A model generated the notes under the pieces. The model saw only the letters and a program-made list of their open reading frames with translations, did not search any database and was not told the DNA's origin. Made by a program: the position numbers and the translations under genes. Positions 4,831-32,512 of a DNA stretch of 44,466 bases are shown here, one piece after another. Each line of letters starts with the position of its first letter. Position 1 is the first letter of the stretch. This DNA comes from a virus (taxonomy: Duplodnaviria > Caudoviricetes): positions 1-44,466 of IMG/VR virus record IMGVR_UViG_3300018073_000008; one strand, 5' to 3'.

Positions 4831-5795
4831 GGGTCGTAGTCCGGTTCCACTAACGTAGTCCAGTGAATACGGTCACGCAGCAGCCTGCGCATTGCTGGCT
4901 CAGTGAGCTCATTGGGATCTTTCTTCCCAATGCTACGCCATTGTACAACAAATACACGCGGAATGCACTCTGCTAATTGCTGGCACATTTTCAGTTGTGC
5001 CACTTGACCAGCGGCGTCGTTGTCGCTGAACACAGTTACCTCATCGAACCTTTCGGCTAGTAAAGCTAGCTGTTCGCGCGTTAGCCCGGTACCTAGCGTT
5101 GCTACTATGTTATCCAACCCATATTCGTATGCGCGGAGTGCATCTTTGGCACCTTCGACAATAATGCAAGAATCTCGGCGGGCAGGTATGTACGGCATTC
5201 CGTACAGGACATGGCGGCGATCAAAGTCTTTAGAGTAGAGATATCTTGGGTGTTGCCACGCATTGACGGCACGGCGGATAATACCGACCCACTTTCCATC
5301 TGCTCTAACTGGGATAACCGATCGCTTAGAGCTTCCGTCGTAGCCAAGGCGAAATCGGTCGACAGTTTCCCTAGAGAACCTACCGTATGGTAATCCATTG
5401 AACCACCACCATGATTTACCCTTCTGGTACCGCGATATATCGATTGCTTTGAATTTGTGTCGTGGAGGGTTAAGGATTGTGTCAAGCTGGGCCAACCCAC
5501 GGTTACGCATGCTTACTATATCTAATGGGCTGCCGTACTCGCTGACAACGTCTATGGCATCACGGTAAGTGGTGCCCTGCGTTAGCATTACCAGACGGGG
5601 CAGGTTACCCCGTTCTCCACAGACCCAACAATGCCAGAGACCAGTTACGGTATTGATCTCCAGGTTGGGTGCGCCCGTTTCGCCGTGGAAGATGCACAGC
5701 GCCACGAACTCCTGCTGTATAACTTCGCCTTCTATCTTGAGTCTATCAAGTACCTGTGGTACATTGATCTCAAGGTCGTCAATATCATGGAACAC
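4821..5795 (-). CDS. dnaG: DNA primase (CHC2 zinc finger + TOPRIM)
   Basis: CIFH...WHCWVC; IIVEGAKDAL; FSDNDAAG; KDPNE. Confidence 0.92.
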   Translation of the reverse strand: MFHDIDDLEINVPQVLDRLKIEGEVIQQEFVALCIFHGETGAPNLEINTVTGLWHCWVCGERGNLPRLVMLTQGTTYRDAIDVVSEYGSPLDIVSMRNRGLAQLDTILNPPRHKFKAIDISRYQKGKSWWWFNGLPYGRFSRETVDRFRLGYDGSSKRSVIPVRADGKWVGIIRRAVNAWQHPRYLYSKDFDRRHVLYGMPYIPARRDSCIIVEGAKDALRAYEYGLDNIVATLGTGLTREQLALLAERFDEVTVFSDNDAAGQVAQLKMCQQLAECIPRVFVVQWRSIGKKDPNELTEPAMRRLLRDRIHWTTLVEPDYDPWK

Positions 5796-8303: not shown

Positions 8304-8332
8304 TTGCTACGGGACATTTGGTTTGCTACAAT
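8304..8332 (+). promoter_or_regulatory. sigma70-type promoter for SF2 helicase operon
   Basis: TTGCTA-N17-TACAAT with TG extension. Confidence 0.7.
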
Positions 8333-8345
8333 AAAAGGTACACCA

Positions 8346-9875
8346 ATGGCCAGACAATCTAGGCAAATCATCCATGCGACGGTTGGGGGAAGACTGTTCG
8401 TCCCAAGAGACGAGATACCGCGACCATTATACCAGACACTCATGTCGCACCTAACGTGGGAGAATCCCGAATACAAAGACCGCGTTTTTAGACAACTGAG
8501 CACCAGCACATACAACAAGAGTTCAGGTACATGGAATGAACTCCCGCGATACATATATGGGATCGAGACAAGTGAAGACGGGTCTGGATACTACATCGCG
8601 AGAGAGTTTGTTCCCGAGTTTGAGAAGCTGTGCAATGAGCTAGAGATTGACGTAGAGTGGGAAGACCTGCGTGTTACGTTCGATCCCAAGCCACTACCCC
8701 ATGACATAGAATTATGGGAACCGCAGAAACCTGCGGTTCGGGACCTATTGCATGATGACTATGGACATCAGGGTGTACTCGAGGCACCATGCGGTTCTGG
8801 GAAAACGGTCATGCTGCTATATGTCGTTGCGGAGCTTGGACAGCCCACAATCATTCTGGCTCATACAGATGATCTTCTCAAGCAATGGCAAGATTATTGC
8901 CGCGATCTTCTTGGCTATGAACCCGGACTTATCCAAGGGGATGTCTACGATATAAAGCAAATCACGCTGGCTAGTGTAATGACGCTGGCGCGTAGAGAGC
9001 TTACTCCTGAGTTTGTGAACATGTGGGGATGCATCATACTGGACGAAGCACACCACTGTCCCGCACAGTGCTTCCAAGAAGTGATGACGCAGTTTCCCGC
9101 GTACTACCGCTTTGGAGCCACGGCTACCCCCAGACGAGAAGACAATCTGCAAGGGCTTCTGTACGCCATCTGTGGGCCGGTAATAGCAAAGGTCGAGCGT
9201 AGGGCACTAAAGCGCGCAGGACTCATTGTAGACCCTGTCGTGATGGTCCACGACACAGGGTTCAACTACCCTTATACTAACATGCGCCAATGGCACAATA
9301 TGGTGCGTTCTCTGATCAATGATAGACGAAGGAATGACCAGATCATCGAGAACATCATCGCAGACCACGACAGCGGCGACCACGTCCAACTTGTCCTATC
9401 TCAGCAAATCGACCACCTCGCACTCCTGGCAAGCACTCTCAGGTCGCGTCGGCCTGACATTTCCCAAGAGCTCCTTATCGCCGGAGGAACTAAAAAGGAT
9501 AGCTATGGACGTGTCACACGCAATATTAGCCGTACAAAGAAAGAAAGGCAAGGGGCTATCTCAGCAGCTAGAGAAGGCACTTTGCGCGTTCTATTTGGAA
9601 CAAAACTGGCAGATGAGGGATTGGATATCCCAAGGCTCGACAGACTCCACCTTGTGTTTCCCTCGCGGGCTCAAGGCAAGATTGCGCAGCAAGTTGGACG
9701 AATTCAACGTGTCCATCCCAGAAAGAGAGACGTTATCGTCCGCGATTACGTGGATGTCCCGAGGGTCCTCGTTAGCCAGTGGTACGAAAGAAGAAAAGCC
9801 TACGCAGAAATGGAGCTAGAGATTATACGTGAAAGTCAAGGATCGGGCCGAGCTACTAGGCTGGTTGCGTCTTAG
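8346..9875 (+). CDS. superfamily 2 DEAH helicase (UvsW/XPB-like)
   Basis: APCGSGKT, DEAHH, ATAT, EGLDIP, QQVGRIQR; start moved to ATG 8346 because the track's TTG start is the promoter -35. Confidence 0.9.
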   Translation: MARQSRQIIHATVGGRLFVPRDEIPRPLYQTLMSHLTWENPEYKDRVFRQLSTSTYNKSSGTWNELPRYIYGIETSEDGSGYYIAREFVPEFEKLCNELEIDVEWEDLRVTFDPKPLPHDIELWEPQKPAVRDLLHDDYGHQGVLEAPCGSGKTVMLLYVVAELGQPTIILAHTDDLLKQWQDYCRDLLGYEPGLIQGDVYDIKQITLASVMTLARRELTPEFVNMWGCIILDEAHHCPAQCFQEVMTQFPAYYRFGATATPRREDNLQGLLYAICGPVIAKVERRALKRAGLIVDPVVMVHDTGFNYPYTNMRQWHNMVRSLINDRRRNDQIIENIIADHDSGDHVQLVLSQQIDHLALLASTLRSRRPDISQELLIAGGTKKDSYGRVTRNISRTKKERQGAISAAREGTLRVLFGTKLADEGLDIPRLDRLHLVFPSRAQGKIAQQVGRIQRVHPRKRDVIVRDYVDVPRVLVSQWYERRKAYAEMELEIIRESQGSGRATRLVAS

Positions 9876-10257
9876 GTTTACCCTGGACGAGAAGCGAAAG
9901 AAGCTTACTCGCAGTATAGACAACATCAACGCAGCAGTCATATCCTACTACGAAAGACGCAACCTTACAGACGTCGTAGACCCTGAAACTGGTACCAAGT
10001 GGCAAAAGCGGCAGGGTACTACGCAGATCTGGAACAACGAATCGCTGAAGGCATTGTTGAAGCGCAAGCGCATACCTGAGGAACTGGTGTTCACCATTGT
10101 TCCTACCGAGGTGCGCAGCGACGAGGCAATCTTCCAGCTTATGCGGGATGGTATACTAACCATCGAAGACATCGAAGGTGTCAGCACACTACAGACGCAC
10201 AAGTCTTACATAGTTGGGTTGAAGAATGCCACGGGACACGACGATCAAGAAGATTAG
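9829..10257 (+). CDS. hypothetical protein
   Basis: 142 aa ORF overlapping both neighbours in the operon. Confidence 0.65.
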   Translation: MKVKDRAELLGWLRLRFTLDEKRKKLTRSIDNINAAVISYYERRNLTDVVDPETGTKWQKRQGTTQIWNNESLKALLKRKRIPEELVFTIVPTEVRSDEAIFQLMRDGILTIEDIEGVSTLQTHKSYIVGLKNATGHDDQED

Positions 10258-10456
10258 CCCCATCGATATTGGGGATCGCATAGGCGTAAGCTTTGGGGTT
10301 ACCCTCAACATGGGCGAGTATCAGAGCTTGCGCGTAGAGTCTTGGGCAGAAGGTACCAAGCGAGAAGGGGAAACATCTGCGGAAGCATATAAACGCCTGT
10401 TCGATGTAGTAGAGCGCGAGGCCAATAAGAGGGCAGGGGAATACAAGAAGCCATGA
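10226..10456 (+). CDS. hypothetical phage protein
   Basis: 76 aa; VSFGVTLNMGEYQSLRVE resembles a recurrent small phage protein motif. Confidence 0.6.
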   Translation: MPRDTTIKKISPIDIGDRIGVSFGVTLNMGEYQSLRVESWAEGTKREGETSAEAYKRLFDVVEREANKRAGEYKKP

Positions 10457-10593
10457 TGATATTCCTCCTAGGTGTTCTGTGCGGTATAGGCATGACCGTG
10501 GGCCTGTACCTGTTCTTGGAGAAGATGTCTGGCCTGGAGCCCTGGGAGGATCCACTTCTACCTTCACAAGGACCTCCGCGCGAAGAAAAATAA
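10453..10593 (+). CDS. 46-aa membrane peptide
   Basis: Manual: MMIFLLGVLCGIGMTVGLYLFLEKMSGLEPWEDPLLPSQGPPREEK; ATGA overlap with previous stop. Confidence 0.55.
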   Translation: MMIFLLGVLCGIGMTVGLYLFLEKMSGLEPWEDPLLPSQGPPREEK

Positions 10594-10596
10594 AGC

Positions 10597-10625
10597 TTGC
10601 ACCCCAGAACCGTCCGTGCTATAGT
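10597..10625 (+). promoter_or_regulatory. sigma70-type promoter
   Basis: TTGCAC-N17-TATAGT with TG extension; A-rich upstream element. Confidence 0.7.
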
Positions 10626-10697
10626 GCTTTTGTGCAGCAACCGATTATCAGGGAAATCGGACTTCCCAATCTATTGTGGTTGCTAAGGAGAATCGAA

Positions 10698-11147
10698 ATG
10701 CCAACCAAAAAAGTTACGCCTGTCAAGGCGTCTCGCAAGCCCGTGGTCGAAGACGAGGATGAGGATGACGAAGAGGAAGAGGTAGTCGTAGTCTCGAGCA
10801 AGAAGAAGGCTGCTGCTCCTATCGCCAAGTCCAAGACCAACGGCGTTGCCAAGACCAACGGTGCTGTCAAGAAGACTGTCGCCAAGGCCGATGCTGAAGA
10901 AGGTTCCTACACCCCTAATGCCAACAGCATGAGAGACTTCATCATGCGGGCAATGAAGAGGGGTGGTACCTCGGCAGAGATCAAGAAGCGTGCCGCCGGC
11001 TTCGCCAGTAAGAAGGGTATCGAAGAGCTTTCAGACGCCAAGAACTACAAGAACTTCGATGTCGCTTTCTACGCCAAGTTCCTCAAGAGCAAGGGTTTCG
11101 ACGTGGAGATCGACGAAGAGGCTGATAGCTACACGCTTTCTGGCTAA
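10698..11147 (+). CDS. 149-aa Lys/acidic-rich protein, possible DNA-binding/nucleoid protein
   Basis: RBS AAGGAG before ATG 10698; MPTKKVTPVK-EDEDEDDEEEE-KKKAAAPIAK, then a compact C-terminal domain; own promoter and terminator. Confidence 0.7.
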   Translation: MPTKKVTPVKASRKPVVEDEDEDDEEEEVVVVSSKKKAAAPIAKSKTNGVAKTNGAVKKTVAKADAEEGSYTPNANSMRDFIMRAMKRGGTSAEIKKRAAGFASKKGIEELSDAKNYKNFDVAFYAKFLKSKGFDVEIDEEADSYTLSG

Positions 11148-11167
11148 CATCGTTCCGACTAGTTTCA

Positions 11168-11202
11168 AGCCCCGCTAGTGATTGCTAGCGGGGTTTTTGT
11201 TT
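11168..11202 (+). terminator. intrinsic terminator
   Basis: CCCCGCTAGT-GATT-GCTAGCGGGG followed by TTTTTGTTT. Confidence 0.8.
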
Positions 11203-11210
11203 GCTACACT
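11182..11210 (+). promoter_or_regulatory. sigma70-type promoter embedded in the terminator
   Basis: TTGCTA-N17-TACACT with TG extension; predicted start near 11217. Confidence 0.65.
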
Positions 11211-11215
11211 TACGC

Positions 11216-11355
11216 TGGAGTTAGCAGGCGAGGGTGACTGTAGGTCTGCATACGGGGTGGGCCTACGGCGGTGAGGCGATTGGATTGTCGAGCGGCAGTT
11301 TAATCCAGTGGGTGGCGGTGTTGTCACAAACGTCGCAAGTAGCCTGCTAACTCTA
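11216..11355 (+). ncRNA. candidate structured RNA (four-way junction), family not recognised
   Basis: Closing stem GAGTTAGCAGGC (11218-11229)/GCCTGCTAACTC (11342-11353); internal stems 11238-11249/11257-11268, 11279-11287/11301-11309, 11315-11322/11329-11336; many G-U pairs; starts at the predicted transcription start. Confidence 0.6.
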
Positions 11356-11378
11356 CTTTCAAGGGAAGGAGGGAGCAT

Positions 11379-11531
11379 ATGTCAAGTCCACAGGAGCCTC
11401 GGGATCCACGGGATCCTCGAGAGCCGGGTGAGAAGCCGGCGCAGCCGAGGCCAGGCGAGCAGCAGGAGCCAACAACTCCGCCTGCTGAGCCAAACCCGCC
11501 GACGCAGCCCCAACCCGCACCCAAGCCGTAG
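11379..11531 (+). CDS. 50-aa Pro/Glu/Gln-rich peptide
   Basis: Manual: MSSPQEPRDPRDPREPGEKPAQPRPGEQQEPTTPPAEPNPPTQPQPAPKP; strong RBS AAGGAGGG; terminator right after stop. Confidence 0.6.
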   Translation: MSSPQEPRDPRDPREPGEKPAQPRPGEQQEPTTPPAEPNPPTQPQPAPKP

Positions 11532-11533
11532 GT

Positions 11534-11577
11534 AAAAGAGACCCCCTGTGTAGGACATCCACAGGGGGTTTCTTTTT
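11534..11577 (+). terminator. intrinsic terminator (possibly bidirectional)
   Basis: AAAAGAGACCCCCTGTG...CACAGGGGGTTTCTTTTT. Confidence 0.8.
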
Positions 11578-11588
11578 ACGAGGATCCA

Positions 11589-12659
11589 ATGATCAAGCGC
11601 ACTATCCCTTGGTGGTTCTTGTTGGTCGGAGGAATGCTACTTGCACTCCTCGTCCCACTCATAACTACCGCTGTTGCGACACCAGCAAAAGCACACACCA
11701 CTGACGAGGACGAAGAAACTTATTCAGCCTGCTACGAAGATTGGGATTACTACTGTCAGGCCACAAAAACTCCCTACCCTACAAAGACCAAAACAGCTAC
11801 CCCTGAAACAACACCAACCTGGGTAGCACCGACAAGTACTCCTGGTCCTACCAACACGTCGGCTCCAACCAATACGCCAATCAACACGCCGACATCAATT
11901 CCGCCAACATCAACACCAGGATCGGGTGGCGGAGGAACACCAACTTCGGTCCCGCCAACTAACACACCGCCGCCATCAGGTCAGTTCGGAACTACACCGA
12001 CTCCTGCTACGGCGACACCGATACCAACGGCTGCGGCCACTAACACTCCACCAGCCAACACGCCAGTGCCATGCCCAGACTGTGGGCCAGGTGGACAGAG
12101 TTTACCAACCCCGATCACAACCGCACCAACACCTACAGGAGGTGGAGGTTCGGGTGGTGGGTGCCCTGACTGCAATATAAATCCTGCCAGCAGCCCAGGT
12201 GGAGTACCTGGACAGTTTAGCGTTCCAGGCGGTACAGCAGGCGGAGAACAGCCTAGTGCTTCAAGCACAGGAGGCGGTGGAGGAAGTGGCGGATCAGGAG
12301 GTGGTTCTACTCTGAGTGAGTACTGCCACTACGAACCCGCCAACCAGATGTGGGAAATTCGCCGCAGCAATGACGTCCCCAAGGCCGTTGCTCAGGGTGG
12401 CGAGATGCCACTATTACCTCATATCTGTGACCAGCACTTGGCAACCGTAGTTCCGACCGCTACCATCGTCCCAACTGTGGTTCCCACAGTTACACCCACC
12501 CTCGTTCCCACTGTGGCTGCTACAACTACGCCAGAGGTACTGCCAGTCGTAATAGTCCAAGAAGCAGTGCCAGCAGTGGCTCCTCCAGCAATCCCAACAG
12601 CAACCCCGACACCAGAGGCAATCCCAGTAACAACACCAGCTCCAGCTCAAATTCCCTAA
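11589..12659 (+). CDS. secreted/membrane-anchored Pro/Thr-rich protein with Cys pairs
   Basis: Signal-peptide-like N-terminus ending AKA; PTNTP/PTATP runs, Gly linkers, two CPDC motifs, YCH...IC mini-domain. Confidence 0.75.
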   Translation: MIKRTIPWWFLLVGGMLLALLVPLITTAVATPAKAHTTDEDEETYSACYEDWDYYCQATKTPYPTKTKTATPETTPTWVAPTSTPGPTNTSAPTNTPINTPTSIPPTSTPGSGGGGTPTSVPPTNTPPPSGQFGTTPTPATATPIPTAAATNTPPANTPVPCPDCGPGGQSLPTPITTAPTPTGGGGSGGGCPDCNINPASSPGGVPGQFSVPGGTAGGEQPSASSTGGGGGSGGSGGGSTLSEYCHYEPANQMWEIRRSNDVPKAVAQGGEMPLLPHICDQHLATVVPTATIVPTVVPTVTPTLVPTVAATTTPEVLPVVIVQEAVPAVAPPAIPTATPTPEAIPVTTPAPAQIP

Positions 12660-12662
12660 GTC

Positions 12663-12703
12663 AGAATCCCCTGCACGAATGGAGTATGCAGGGGATTCTT
12701 TTT
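12663..12703 (+). terminator. intrinsic terminator between convergent transcription units
   Basis: AGAATCCCCTGCA/TGCAGGGGATTCT 13-bp stem then T run. Confidence 0.8.
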
Positions 12704-12809
12704 GCCAAGAGAAAGACCCCCTACTCCGGTTGCTAGCGGCGGGCAAGCGCCGCAACCGTTTCAGGGGCCTACTCTCACCCGCCCGTGGCAAAACGGGTGA
12801 TCTGGAAAA

Positions 12810-13103
12810 CTACCGACTTGGTGGTGGGTCGGTATTCTTTTCTGGCCTTGTATTTCGAAACGTGGCTTCCCGTACCAGTGCTTCGGCTGGCTCAAGCAGA
12901 TACTGTGAGAAGTCACGATAGTAATCGATATCCTTCTGCATCTGCTCTTCTCGACGTAGCATTTCCGCCTTTAGACTTTCTATCTGCACATCTTTAGAAG
13001 CGATCAAAGCCCTGGCTAGGAAAGAGATCGCTCCTGTAAGTATGCCCATGATGCCCCCAATCGCTGCCATTGTAGTGAGATTGAGGACAAAGGTTTCTTC
13101 CAT
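12810..13103 (-). CDS. membrane protein with coiled coil; holin- or lysis-accessory-like
   Basis: One N-terminal TM helix then heptad-like KDVQIESLKAEMLRREEQMQKD; last gene of lysis cassette. Confidence 0.6.
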   Translation of the reverse strand: MEETFVLNLTTMAAIGGIMGILTGAISFLARALIASKDVQIESLKAEMLRREEQMQKDIDYYRDFSQYLLEPAEALVREATFRNTRPEKNTDPPPSR

Positions 13104-13104
13104 A

Positions 13105-14232
13105 TCACGGCCTGAATGGCAAGTCCAACGTTGGTAATGGCGGGCGCGGTGTAAACGTTGGCCTTGGTGTGAAAGTCGGACGTGGAGTGAATGTCGGACG
13201 TGGAGTGAATGTAGGGATTGGAGTACGTGTTGGCTCAGGCGGAGGCCTACCAGTTGAAGGTGGTTCAGTGGGTACCGGCGTTGGAGGCGGGACTGGAGTA
13301 TTGGTAGGTCTCGGGGTGGGTTGTGGTGGGGGTACGGGGGTATTAGTGGGTATTGGTGGGGGAACAGGTGTAGACGTTGGTGGCGATGGTGGTACAGGTG
13401 TCGCAGTAGCTTGTGGCACTACTGGCACTGAAGTAGCTGTAGGTACCTCTGGAGCAACGCCAGACGTAGGTATGGAAGTAGGTACCACAGGAGCAGCCGT
13501 CGCCACTGGAACAGGAGTATTGGTAGGTTCTCCAGGGGCTACCGGCACAGATGTGTTGGTTGGAGCCGGAGTAGCTGTGGAGGCTGCACTGTTCCTCTGT
13601 TCCTCTTCCTCCTCGGGTAGGGGGGTGGGGGTAGGGGCTGCATTTGGCTGCAACCCTGCAACCGCAGGAGTCTCCGGCATCTCCTCTGGCTCACCCTCTA
13701 CTATAGCTTGTTCAGGTTCCTCAACTGGCACCGGCGTTGGAGTATTGATAATCACCGTGGCTTGCGGCTTGACAGCAGGCTTGGGCAGAGGCTGACCAGC
13801 AGGTACCACCAGCGTAGCCACAACTACTGGAGTAGGTGTAGGCTCTGGCTCACCCGTTTCAGCATCTGTTACTATGGGGATCTCCCCTTGATCCTGAGTA
13901 ACCGTTATTACCCTGTCGCCATCTTGATCATCAATATTGACGGCCAGAGAAATAGGTGTAGGAGCACCAGGAATTGGGGTACCTTCTGGGGTAGCCTGTG
14001 CAATGGCAATCTGAGCATCACCCTCGTCGTTCTGGTTCACCGTAACCTGAAATACTACAGGCGGCAGAGGGTTAGTCGTCGGAGCAAGGGTAGCTGTAGG
14101 TAATGGATCTGGCACAGCATCAGCTACCCTTACCGCTGTGATGTTGAGAAGTAGAATAGTGCCCGCTACTCCACCAACACCACAGACAAATAACCAAGCC
14201 CATGTTCCCAGAATGCCACGGATATTCTGCAC
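13105..14232 (-). CDS. membrane-anchored Pro/Thr-rich protein
   Basis: N-terminal TM; PTNTPVP repeats; C-terminal PTFTPR tandem repeats. Confidence 0.75.
   Translation of the reverse strand: MQNIRGILGTWAWLFVCGVGGVAGTILLLNITAVRVADAVPDPLPTATLAPTTNPLPPVVFQVTVNQNDEGDAQIAIAQATPEGTPIPGAPTPISLAVNIDDQDGDRVITVTQDQGEIPIVTDAETGEPEPTPTPVVVATLVVPAGQPLPKPAVKPQATVIINTPTPVPVEEPEQAIVEGEPEEMPETPAVAGLQPNAAPTPTPLPEEEEEQRNSAASTATPAPTNTSVPVAPGEPTNTPVPVATAAPVVPTSIPTSGVAPEVPTATSVPVVPQATATPVPPSPPTSTPVPPPIPTNTPVPPPQPTPRPTNTPVPPPTPVPTEPPSTGRPPPEPTRTPIPTFTPRPTFTPRPTFTPRPTFTPRPPLPTLDLPFRP
13142..13216. repeat. 18-bp coding tandem repeat (PTFTPR x4)
   Basis: GGACGTGGAGTGAATGT present twice exactly, plus two synonymous-variant copies. 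Confidence 0.75.
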
Positions 14233-31330: not shown

Positions 31331-32512
31331 CTATGCTGGTGGTGGTGGAGGACCACCTGGGTCTAGAGTTGCCATGATAGTCTGGATGTATTCGCGCAGT
31401 TCGATATCCACTGCGGCTCCCTGCGCGGTTGCTGCCTCAGGTGGTGGTACTCCTCCTGGATCTAGGATTGCCATCATGTTTTGAACGTAAACACGTAGCT
31501 CTGAGTCTGCCCCGGACATAGTGGCGGCACCATAGGAGATTATAACACGTTCGCTCCCATTGAAGGGGTCTGTAAAAGTAACCGTGTTGCCACCTCCAGT
31601 TAGAGCATAGTCCCCATTGACATATGACTGAATAACGCCGCCTCTGGACACCATCAACAAGAGTGTCGCCTGGGTACTTAGGGTGACTACTGTAGCACCG
31701 TTAGCTGGGACAAACTCCTCATGTGCACCTGTAGTCGTAGCACCTGTTTCACCCATTGCCCCCTGCGGACCAGGAGAACCTTGAGGACCAGCCGGGCCAG
31801 TATCACCTTTAGGTCCAATTGGACCAGGCATACCTTCATAGCCGCGCTGTCCCTCTAGTCCTTGTGGACCAGTAGCACCAGGGTCACCCTTCAGGCCCGT
31901 TGGACCTGGATTACCCTGGGGTCCCGCAGGGCCAGTGACCCCGGGAGGGCCAGGAACAGTAGATCCAGGACCGACTGGACCTGCTGGACCGGGCGGGCCT
32001 GCTGGACCCTGCGGGCCTACAATGACGTCTTCGGCGATCTCTGAGTTATTTACAAAGACGTTATCGCCATTGACATTCGTGGTGCCACCGACAAGATTAA
32101 TAGTGACAGCATGAGTTACGGGGTCCATTATAACTTCTAGCCCCGCAAAGTCACCGCCATCTCTATCTTTGTTTATACCGTATCTGGCTCGGTATATCTG
32201 CTCGTTGGTGGTACGAGTCTTGAACATGATTACCCACTTTCTCTTGGAAAGTGGGGCCATGACCACCGTATCACCCTTGGTGAGCATTAGATCTTCGGGC
32301 ACCAGCAGGTCGCCCTTGTGCTCAGCAAAGATCATCGGCCCACCCAGAGAACTTTCGCCATCCATGGCTACAGTGATCTCTGGCAAACTACTGAGAACAA
32401 TGCCTGTTCTCAGGACCAAACCCGTACCCGCTAGGGCATTGAGCTTGTCCTCGTTGTCTGCGATATTACGCAGAACATCGAGTAGTTTCTGGGGTCCATC
32501 AATAGTGGTCAT
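31331..32512 (-). CDS. baseplate spike-like (XkdR position) protein with collagen-like region
   Basis: [12 protein letters not shown]...[11 protein letters not shown]-fold-like N-terminus directly after hub; Gly-X-Y run ~31743-32018; duplicated C-terminal helix. Confidence 0.65.

Follow-up and report, generated by a model that had tools for sequence, protein, structure and literature searches.

The window analysed here (the whole stretch of 44,466 nucleotides of phage DNA) carries a folded RNA structure of 138 nt at positions 11217-11354 of the plus strand, and this structure is an undescribed RNA element, so far confined to one small phage family and best filed among the 5' structured leaders. 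Among the related phages the outer stem of the element is kept, and the inner hairpins are swapped or lost. The predicted transcript of about 360 nt consists of the leader, a Shine-Dalgarno site, a proline-rich ORF and a terminator (Table 1). The structure is probably not a stand-alone gene, because no terminator follows it in the window and the Shine-Dalgarno site and the ORF do; the free-standing RNA gene of about 140 nt proposed in an initial annotation of this DNA is thus not supported. The function tentatively favoured, at a little under an even chance, is that of a 5' leader with a variable interior that stabilises the message.

Secondary structure of the element

The fold of positions 11217-11354 was computed for both strands. 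The plus strand gave -67.8 kcal/mol with a z-score of -6.78, against -37.4 kcal/mol and -3.11 for the minus strand. None of 200 shuffles was as stable on either strand, and the GC-corrected energy was lower in only one of the 1286 tiles of 138 nt taken from both strands of the window. G-U pairs account for 12 of the 51 pairs of the minimum-energy fold, in accordance with the initial view that G-U-rich stems work on the plus strand. The perfect terminal stem described at the outset was recovered as well: 12 Watson-Crick pairs join 11218-11229 to 11342-11353, and the stem lengthens to 14 through the G-U pair 11217/11354 and the U-A pair 11216/11355. Three hairpins lie inside it, as had been claimed, and their computed lengths are 11, 12 and 6 bp in place of the 12, 9 and 8 bp first given. 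In hairpin B one G-U pair becomes A-U in the near-identical locus L022. The best fold of hairpin C pairs 11312-11327, and the register resembling that of the relatives (11312-11336) is 6 kcal/mol less stable. The best fold makes the neck of the window an internal loop of 4 by 5 bases.

GUA is predicted to pair with GAG across the neck in a loop-E-like manner. The neck may be closer to one half of the loop E of bacterial 5S rRNA. With the bulged-G motif of sarcin-ricin/loop E (PMC1865062) it shares a GUA strand that faces a GA strand directly on a Watson-Crick pair. It differs in that the neck reads AGUA-GAG in three of the four full forms and UGUA-GAG in the other, and the GAG strand is absent from the 22 sequences in Table 2 of that source.

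A pseudoknot had been suggested between GTGAC (11234-11238) and a last loop GTCAC (11323-11327). The two are indeed complementary, but GTCAC sits in a stem of the best fold and the pairing finds no support as a feature of the family, as three relatives yield differing best pairings. Forcing the five pairs as a nested helix costs about 9 kcal/mol, a figure that does not give the energy of a real pseudoknot. By eye, L003, L007 and L024 could form a loop-loop pairing between G-rich and C-rich stretches, and the window could not. A G-quadruplex was also considered and rejected, the GGG tracts showing no clear enrichment (p 0.04-0.80).

Table 1. Features of the leader locus in window coordinates
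Feature	Positions	Strand	Basis or remark
Upstream (anchor) gene, 149 aa	10698..11147	+	acidic Lys-rich N-part, conserved C-domain
Predicted intrinsic terminator of upstream gene	11167..11196	+	contains -35 box
Predicted sigma-70-type promoter TTGCTA-17-TACACT	11182..11210	+	predicted start 11217
Closing stem P1, 5' strand	11217..11229	+	fold; compensatory changes
Neck, 5' side, GAGG	11230..11233	+	within the sole 8-mer common to all 4 full forms
Inner hairpin A, 11 bp	11239..11267	+	mean pair probability 0.96; sequence not conserved
Inner hairpin B, 12 bp	11278..11305	+	mean pair probability 0.99
Inner hairpin C, two alternative registers	11312..11336	+	best fold pairs 11312-11327
Neck, 3' side, AAGUA	11337..11341	+	GUA kept in 4/4 full forms
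Closing stem P1, 3' strand	11342..11354	+	fold
Shine-Dalgarno site AAGGAGG	11366..11372	+	ahead of mini-ORF in 10/10 lineages reaching it
Pro/Glu/Gln-rich ORF, 50 codons	11379..11531	+	ATG at 11379
Predicted intrinsic terminator, hairpin and T run	11535..11576	+	from sequence; unlisted by consensus scan

Promoter, mini-ORF and terminators

Counted from the -10 box, +7 is G11217, where base pairing begins; this agrees with the earlier proposal that the 5' end of the RNA fits the start of a TTGCTA-N17-TACACT promoter. This promoter is unlisted by the consensus scan, and promoters of the same form stand at 8327 and 10620 of the window. The original start of the annotated feature at 11182 took in the promoter and half of the upstream terminator, and the Shine-Dalgarno site, the ORF and the terminator that follow had been omitted. 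A hairpin resembling the upstream terminator was seen in L004, L024, L027 and L028 and is absent in L003, L005, L007, L008 and L029. The leader is placed upstream of a ribosome-binding site and an ORF, with no terminator between them.

In the ten lineages that reach that far, the relatives of the mini-ORF encode 26-68 aa with 22-48% proline. The product gave no Pfam or PHROG family and no homologue in a word-based protein search. A terminator hairpin like that at its end occurs in eight of the ten lineages, L027 and L028 being the exceptions.

Leader forms in related phages

Relatives were found among viral and metagenome contigs by means of the upstream 149-aa protein, which served as positional anchor. 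Eleven related phage lineages, the window included, were left after removal of near-copies (L002, L021, L022, L023 and L033, for the window; L006, L026, L030, L031; and repeated viral loci). L032, which ends within the anchor gene, and the unrelated L040-L042 were left out. The full multi-hairpin form was found in four lineages (window, L003, L007, L024) and a single long hairpin in four others (L004, L005, L027, L028). Two lineages (L008, L029) are leaderless; they retain promoter, Shine-Dalgarno site and ORF, with the Shine-Dalgarno site 11 bases from +7. The contig of L025, the remaining lineage, is cut off, so that ten lineages reach the mini-ORF.

The -10 box is kept in all eleven lineages. 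Each of the four full forms comprises the closing stem, the word GGCGAGGG, three hairpins and GUA ahead of the 3' strand. In all eight leader-bearing lineages the closing stem starts at, or at most one base from, the predicted +7 start, and the Shine-Dalgarno site lies 11-20 bases past the stem. Close relatives differ in the length of the interior, which spans about 25 to 150 bases. For the full forms of L003, L007 and L024 the gain in stability over shuffles is only modest (z -1.8 to -2.1). In folds of the complete predicted transcript, the first five bases were paired with a probability of only 0.26 in L007 and 0.56 in L003; in both the C-rich ORF competes with the stem.

The order of leader, proline-rich mini-ORF, terminator and downstream gene is seen in the window, L003, L005, L008 and L029. 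In L004, L007 and L024 the next conserved element comes only 73-103 bases after the mini-ORF stop, and no gene lies there. The lineage tree is weak, with two of its eight inner branches well supported. None of 200 bootstrap trees groups the full forms as a single clade, and the leaderless lineages do form one. This distribution fits an ancestral element repeatedly reduced, or cassette exchange.

The full form of L024 and the short form of L004 share one 15-base hairpin base for base. L004 also carries, at 5373-5495, another RNA that lacks an ORF and is flanked by a promoter and a terminator of its own. Positions 1026-1107 of L025 begin a similar RNA, with words of 12 and 9 bases in common. This RNA opens with a hairpin whose loop is Shine-Dalgarno-like, no start codon being present. 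As L004 carries such an RNA and L025 begins a similar one, the locus can make an ORF-free RNA.

Conservation and covariation

The closing stem was examined for compensatory changes, covariation being one of the checks named in the initial annotation, and they were found. In the full forms all 49 cells of P1 are paired and four of ten pairs are altered on both sides, a count over five rows of which one is a near-copy of the window. Over all leader types (nine sequences) 96% of 75 cells are paired and six of nine pairs are altered on both sides. Slid-register controls for the closing stem gave 12-53% paired. These counts are biased towards the structure, which was derived from the window, and the alignment of two of the rows is poor.

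The interior of the full forms is 0.55-0.73 identical, compared with 0.53-0.58 for shuffles, and the upstream gene is 0.70-0.81 identical among the same phages. The sole 8-mer common to the four full forms lies at the neck; short purine-rich linkers are also kept. Because the interior is mostly near chance identity, the inner hairpins rest on per-sequence folding in place of a covariation test, for which four independent full forms are too few to reach significance.

Searches for known families and further copies

Rfam 15 returned no match at the gathering threshold in the window or in ten related loci, and neither ARAGORN nor Rfam found a tRNA or tmRNA. This upholds the initial statement that the RNA matches no tRNA, SRP RNA, 6S RNA, tmRNA or riboswitch. 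The sub-threshold Rfam matches neither cover the RNA nor recur across homologues. The best of them, CRISPR-DR10 (24.9 bits against a cut-off of 39), sits on the upstream terminator, its matching end is not kept in relatives, and it was rejected.

Two pattern scans of 2.9 million viral contigs detected no instance of the element outside its small phage family. The promoter-plus-neck pattern gave 20 viral matches (3 true, 17 unrelated) and the neck-and-linker pattern five (3 true, 2 without the stem). A pattern for the start of the mini-ORF gave nine, six within the family and three unrelated. Model R1, searched against 31 sources (349,953 bases), recovered only training sequences or their copies plus one match at E 1.8, and it missed the plain-hairpin forms. 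The motif was not found in isolated phages, where one match at E 0.1 lies inside the mini-ORF, and one scan of bacterial genomes gave a single weak irrelevant match. Descriptor and model searches revealed one copy of the element per genome. The literature searched yielded no description of the motif. Its short motifs are absent from four of the six supplementary files of the PMC10690425 catalogue, and they may be present elsewhere in that catalogue.

The GGCGAGGG pattern also caught an unrelated, highly conserved element of about 120 bases in L043, L045-L047, L049, L050, L053-L056, L059 and L060 (around 575-700). In other viral contigs this element mostly adjoins tRNA genes, and the three copies tested had no Rfam match.

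Expression

Assembled contigs from four sequencing runs of four studies, each holding a small share of the region, were aligned to 9800-13200. The runs had been picked using 10600-12850; that X3 is an RNA run is a guess, and DNA may have been carried over. Among the contig pieces listed, the long ones cover 10621-11049 and 11233-11548. RNA-library contigs overlap the 138-nt RNA in two of the four runs, X2 and X3, with the same possible carry-over. The X2 contigs span 11233-11383 (no difference from the window) and 11378-11528. The X3 contig spans 11277-11471, again without a difference, and crosses both the RNA and the ORF. No contig of the four runs falls on 9800-10597 or 11624-13200, a gap that proves nothing. 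The overlap is consistent with transcription; strand, ends and level are not readable from contigs.

Phage genome and neighbouring features

The window is a linear virus record with a completeness of about 47%, and it encodes a DnaB helicase, a primase, a second helicase, a GH25 lysin, a tape measure protein and tail sheath proteins. A complete relative of 90.6 kb additionally has a DNA polymerase III alpha subunit, RecA, thymidylate synthase and a 5-hmdU kinase domain. The best matches of the tail sheath among isolated phages are at most 25.5% identical and come mostly from Bacillus and Clostridium phages. Positions 2769-6695 of L082 (genome G001) hold a 5-hmdU kinase domain with radical SAM and deoxyribosyltransferase-like genes, thymidylate synthase being encoded elsewhere; this gene set suggests modified DNA bases in the phage family.

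The RNA and mini-ORF unit is placed in a variable island with the helicase operon on one side and the lysis genes on the other. The upstream 149-aa protein has 45 related protein clusters and no Pfam or PHROG family; its Atlas leads are all sub-threshold, among them HARE-HTH at 0.77. Beyond the mini-ORF, the variable slot 11589-12659 of the window encodes a 356-aa Pro/Thr-rich protein with a hydrophobic N-terminus, which gave no Pfam, PHROG or Atlas match. The equivalent slot holds differing ORFs in L003, L027 and L028 and an 83-aa ORF in L005, L008 and L029, and is empty in L004, L007 and L024.

The 2.2-kb island holds two further uncatalogued conserved RNA structures. One, better conserved than the leader, lies at 12709-12805 on the minus strand, just past the last lysis-side gene. 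In it a small hairpin precedes a long stem, which is interrupted by a GAA/AGUA internal loop and capped by a nearly invariant loop whose sequence complements part of that hairpin. A search with an exact 20-base pattern located this structure in ten viral contigs, five of its 27 predicted pairs are altered on both sides (seven sequences), the minus strand folds better, and Rfam gave no match. The other (10632-10697, plus strand) is a structured leader of the 149-aa gene, with an inner hairpin and a stem that ends at the Shine-Dalgarno site. Its mean column identity is 80% in six lineages, and it is possibly a self-regulation site. Elsewhere, the stretch 31771-32016, inside a predicted ORF, shows unusually stable folding of both strands (residual z -3.3 and -2.5).

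Proposed function of the leader

The 5'-protecting leader is the most likely reading because all eight leaders share a stem at the predicted first base and paired 5' ends block decay that depends on RppH and RNase E (PMC3997798, PMC7509114). As stated in the cited part of PMC3997798, secondary structure at the 5' end stabilises mRNA since both enzymes need single-stranded ends. In the proposed mechanism transcription would start at 11217 and the RNA and the ORF would form one molecule, whose paired first nucleotides would shield it from 5'-end-dependent decay. Stabilisation of the short message would be the function. Selection would hold the paired 5' end and a nuclease-resistant fold, leaving the inner hairpins free to grow, shrink or be exchanged. 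Counted for this reading were the covarying closing stem, the near-chance identity of the interior, the plain hairpin that serves in four of the eleven lineages, the two leaderless lineages and the overlapping contigs. In the passages cited from the same two sources, the ompA- and papA-type 5' stem-loop stabilisers resemble the element: their messages begin in base-paired sequence, as this one is predicted to, and the ribosome-binding site lies separately downstream. The present stem differs from them in that it closes a three-hairpin junction with a conserved neck and an interior of widely varying length. Against a stabiliser, one hairpin would be enough for that purpose, and the three hairpins and neck kept in the four full forms exceed it. 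The modest z-scores of the three related full forms and the limited pairing of the first bases in the whole-transcript folds of L007 and L003 also count against it. The neck, the extra hairpins, the hairpin reuse and the ORF-free RNA of L004 are unexplained by it and may point to an RNA acting alone.

An unlikely alternative, yet the main rival, treats the RNA as a product in itself. It would serve as a decoy or sponge domain, either transcribed along with the mini-gene or released from it by cleavage, and its constant stem and neck would present interchangeable hairpins to a host protein that binds RNA or acts in defence. The neck and the short purine-rich linkers are kept and the hairpins diverge much faster than the neighbouring gene; the identical hairpin of L024 and L004 suggests module reuse; the full form is scattered in the trees; L004 has an ORF-free RNA at the locus; and the unit sits in a variable island. 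Still, the analysis turned up no target, no binding protein and no host RNA that the element might mimic. The four RNAs tested gave no match of at least 12 bases elsewhere in the genome, which also speaks against an antisense role, and GGG tracts lack clear enrichment. The RNA is missing in two lineages, the tree is weak, and fast divergence also fits relaxed constraint. Somewhat less likely again is the specific proposal of a modular decoy, in which a constant scaffold of stem and neck would carry hairpins swapped faster than neighbouring proteins change and, together with a disordered proline-rich peptide, would titrate host defences that sense or cleave RNA.

Phage early regions have RNase III processing stems, and a ribonuclease III-type site that frees the mini-gene message from upstream read-through RNA was considered improbable here. 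In five of ten lineages the upstream gene and the element are not separated by a terminator, and every leader has a long double-stranded stem, that of the window with its internal loop at the neck. P1 is, however, only 9-14 bp in the full forms, and since the stem begins at the predicted start of the promoter there is nothing to remove from the transcript of that promoter.

Control of the gene past the terminator, by a riboswitch or by a proline-codon leader attenuator, was judged slightly more improbable. Attenuators of the mgtL and mgtP type have a proline-rich mini-ORF and then a terminator; the order of leader, mini-ORF, terminator and downstream gene in five lineages is in line with this, as are the alternative folds of the window RNA 6 kcal/mol apart. 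The attenuator fails in L004, L007 and L024 because no gene follows the terminator, so that a downstream gene is wanting in three of ten lineages; no terminator was seen in two of ten (L027, L028), and no antiterminator was seen. The riboswitch-like leader of the initial annotation found no support. There is no conserved ligand-binding core, with one shared 8-mer only. No expression platform was seen either, there being no terminator before the ORF and no consistent pairing of leader with Shine-Dalgarno site. The leader is, moreover, missing in two of eleven lineages.

A template for a retron-like or UG27-like reverse transcriptase, or a decoy for a host retron, is a poor candidate. The retron-like layout noted at first is real: as in retron ncRNA (10.1101/2024.01.25.577267), a terminal inverted repeat longer than 8 bp encloses several hairpins, and in four of four full forms an unpaired G directly follows the 5' arm. 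In the cited part of that source the inverted repeat exceeds 8 bp and the priming G is often preceded by TTA; here G follows GGC, and a proline-rich mini-ORF comes after the RNA. No reverse transcriptase adjoins the element, RVT_1 was found in none of five records (two of them at least 98% complete; the three searched full-form genomes 32-59% complete), and no reverse-transcriptase family appears among the 120 ORFs of G001. The passages cited from 10.64898/2026.09.22.753630 describe UG27 phage RNAs of about 150 nt that are diverse in sequence and conserved in structure, arranged in arrays. The present element is likewise phage-borne, of similar length and structure-conserved, with short internal-loop motifs and gain and loss. 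In contrast to UG27 it is single-copy with no array, lacks the three-protein system and has other motifs, and no RVT_1 was found, though RVT_1 may miss divergent enzymes. Of the retron idea, the decoy part lives on in the main rival described above.

Catalytic cores carry many invariant bases, and a new self-cleaving ribozyme is the least probable reading: the compact multi-way junction and conserved neck would suit one, but no known ribozyme family matches, the junction lacks many invariant bases and half of the leaders are plain hairpins.

Significance

To our knowledge, few structured RNAs of lytic phages are understood. The outer stem and neck of the element are fixed and its interior is near chance identity, a pattern missed by alignment-based screens, and the natural full, short and absent variants are a ready test series. 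If the 5'-protecting leader is the right reading, it would be a new if modest case of phages shielding a message that they favour. If instead the decoy is true, it would be a new form of RNA counter-defence, the RNA counterpart of variable anti-defence genes.
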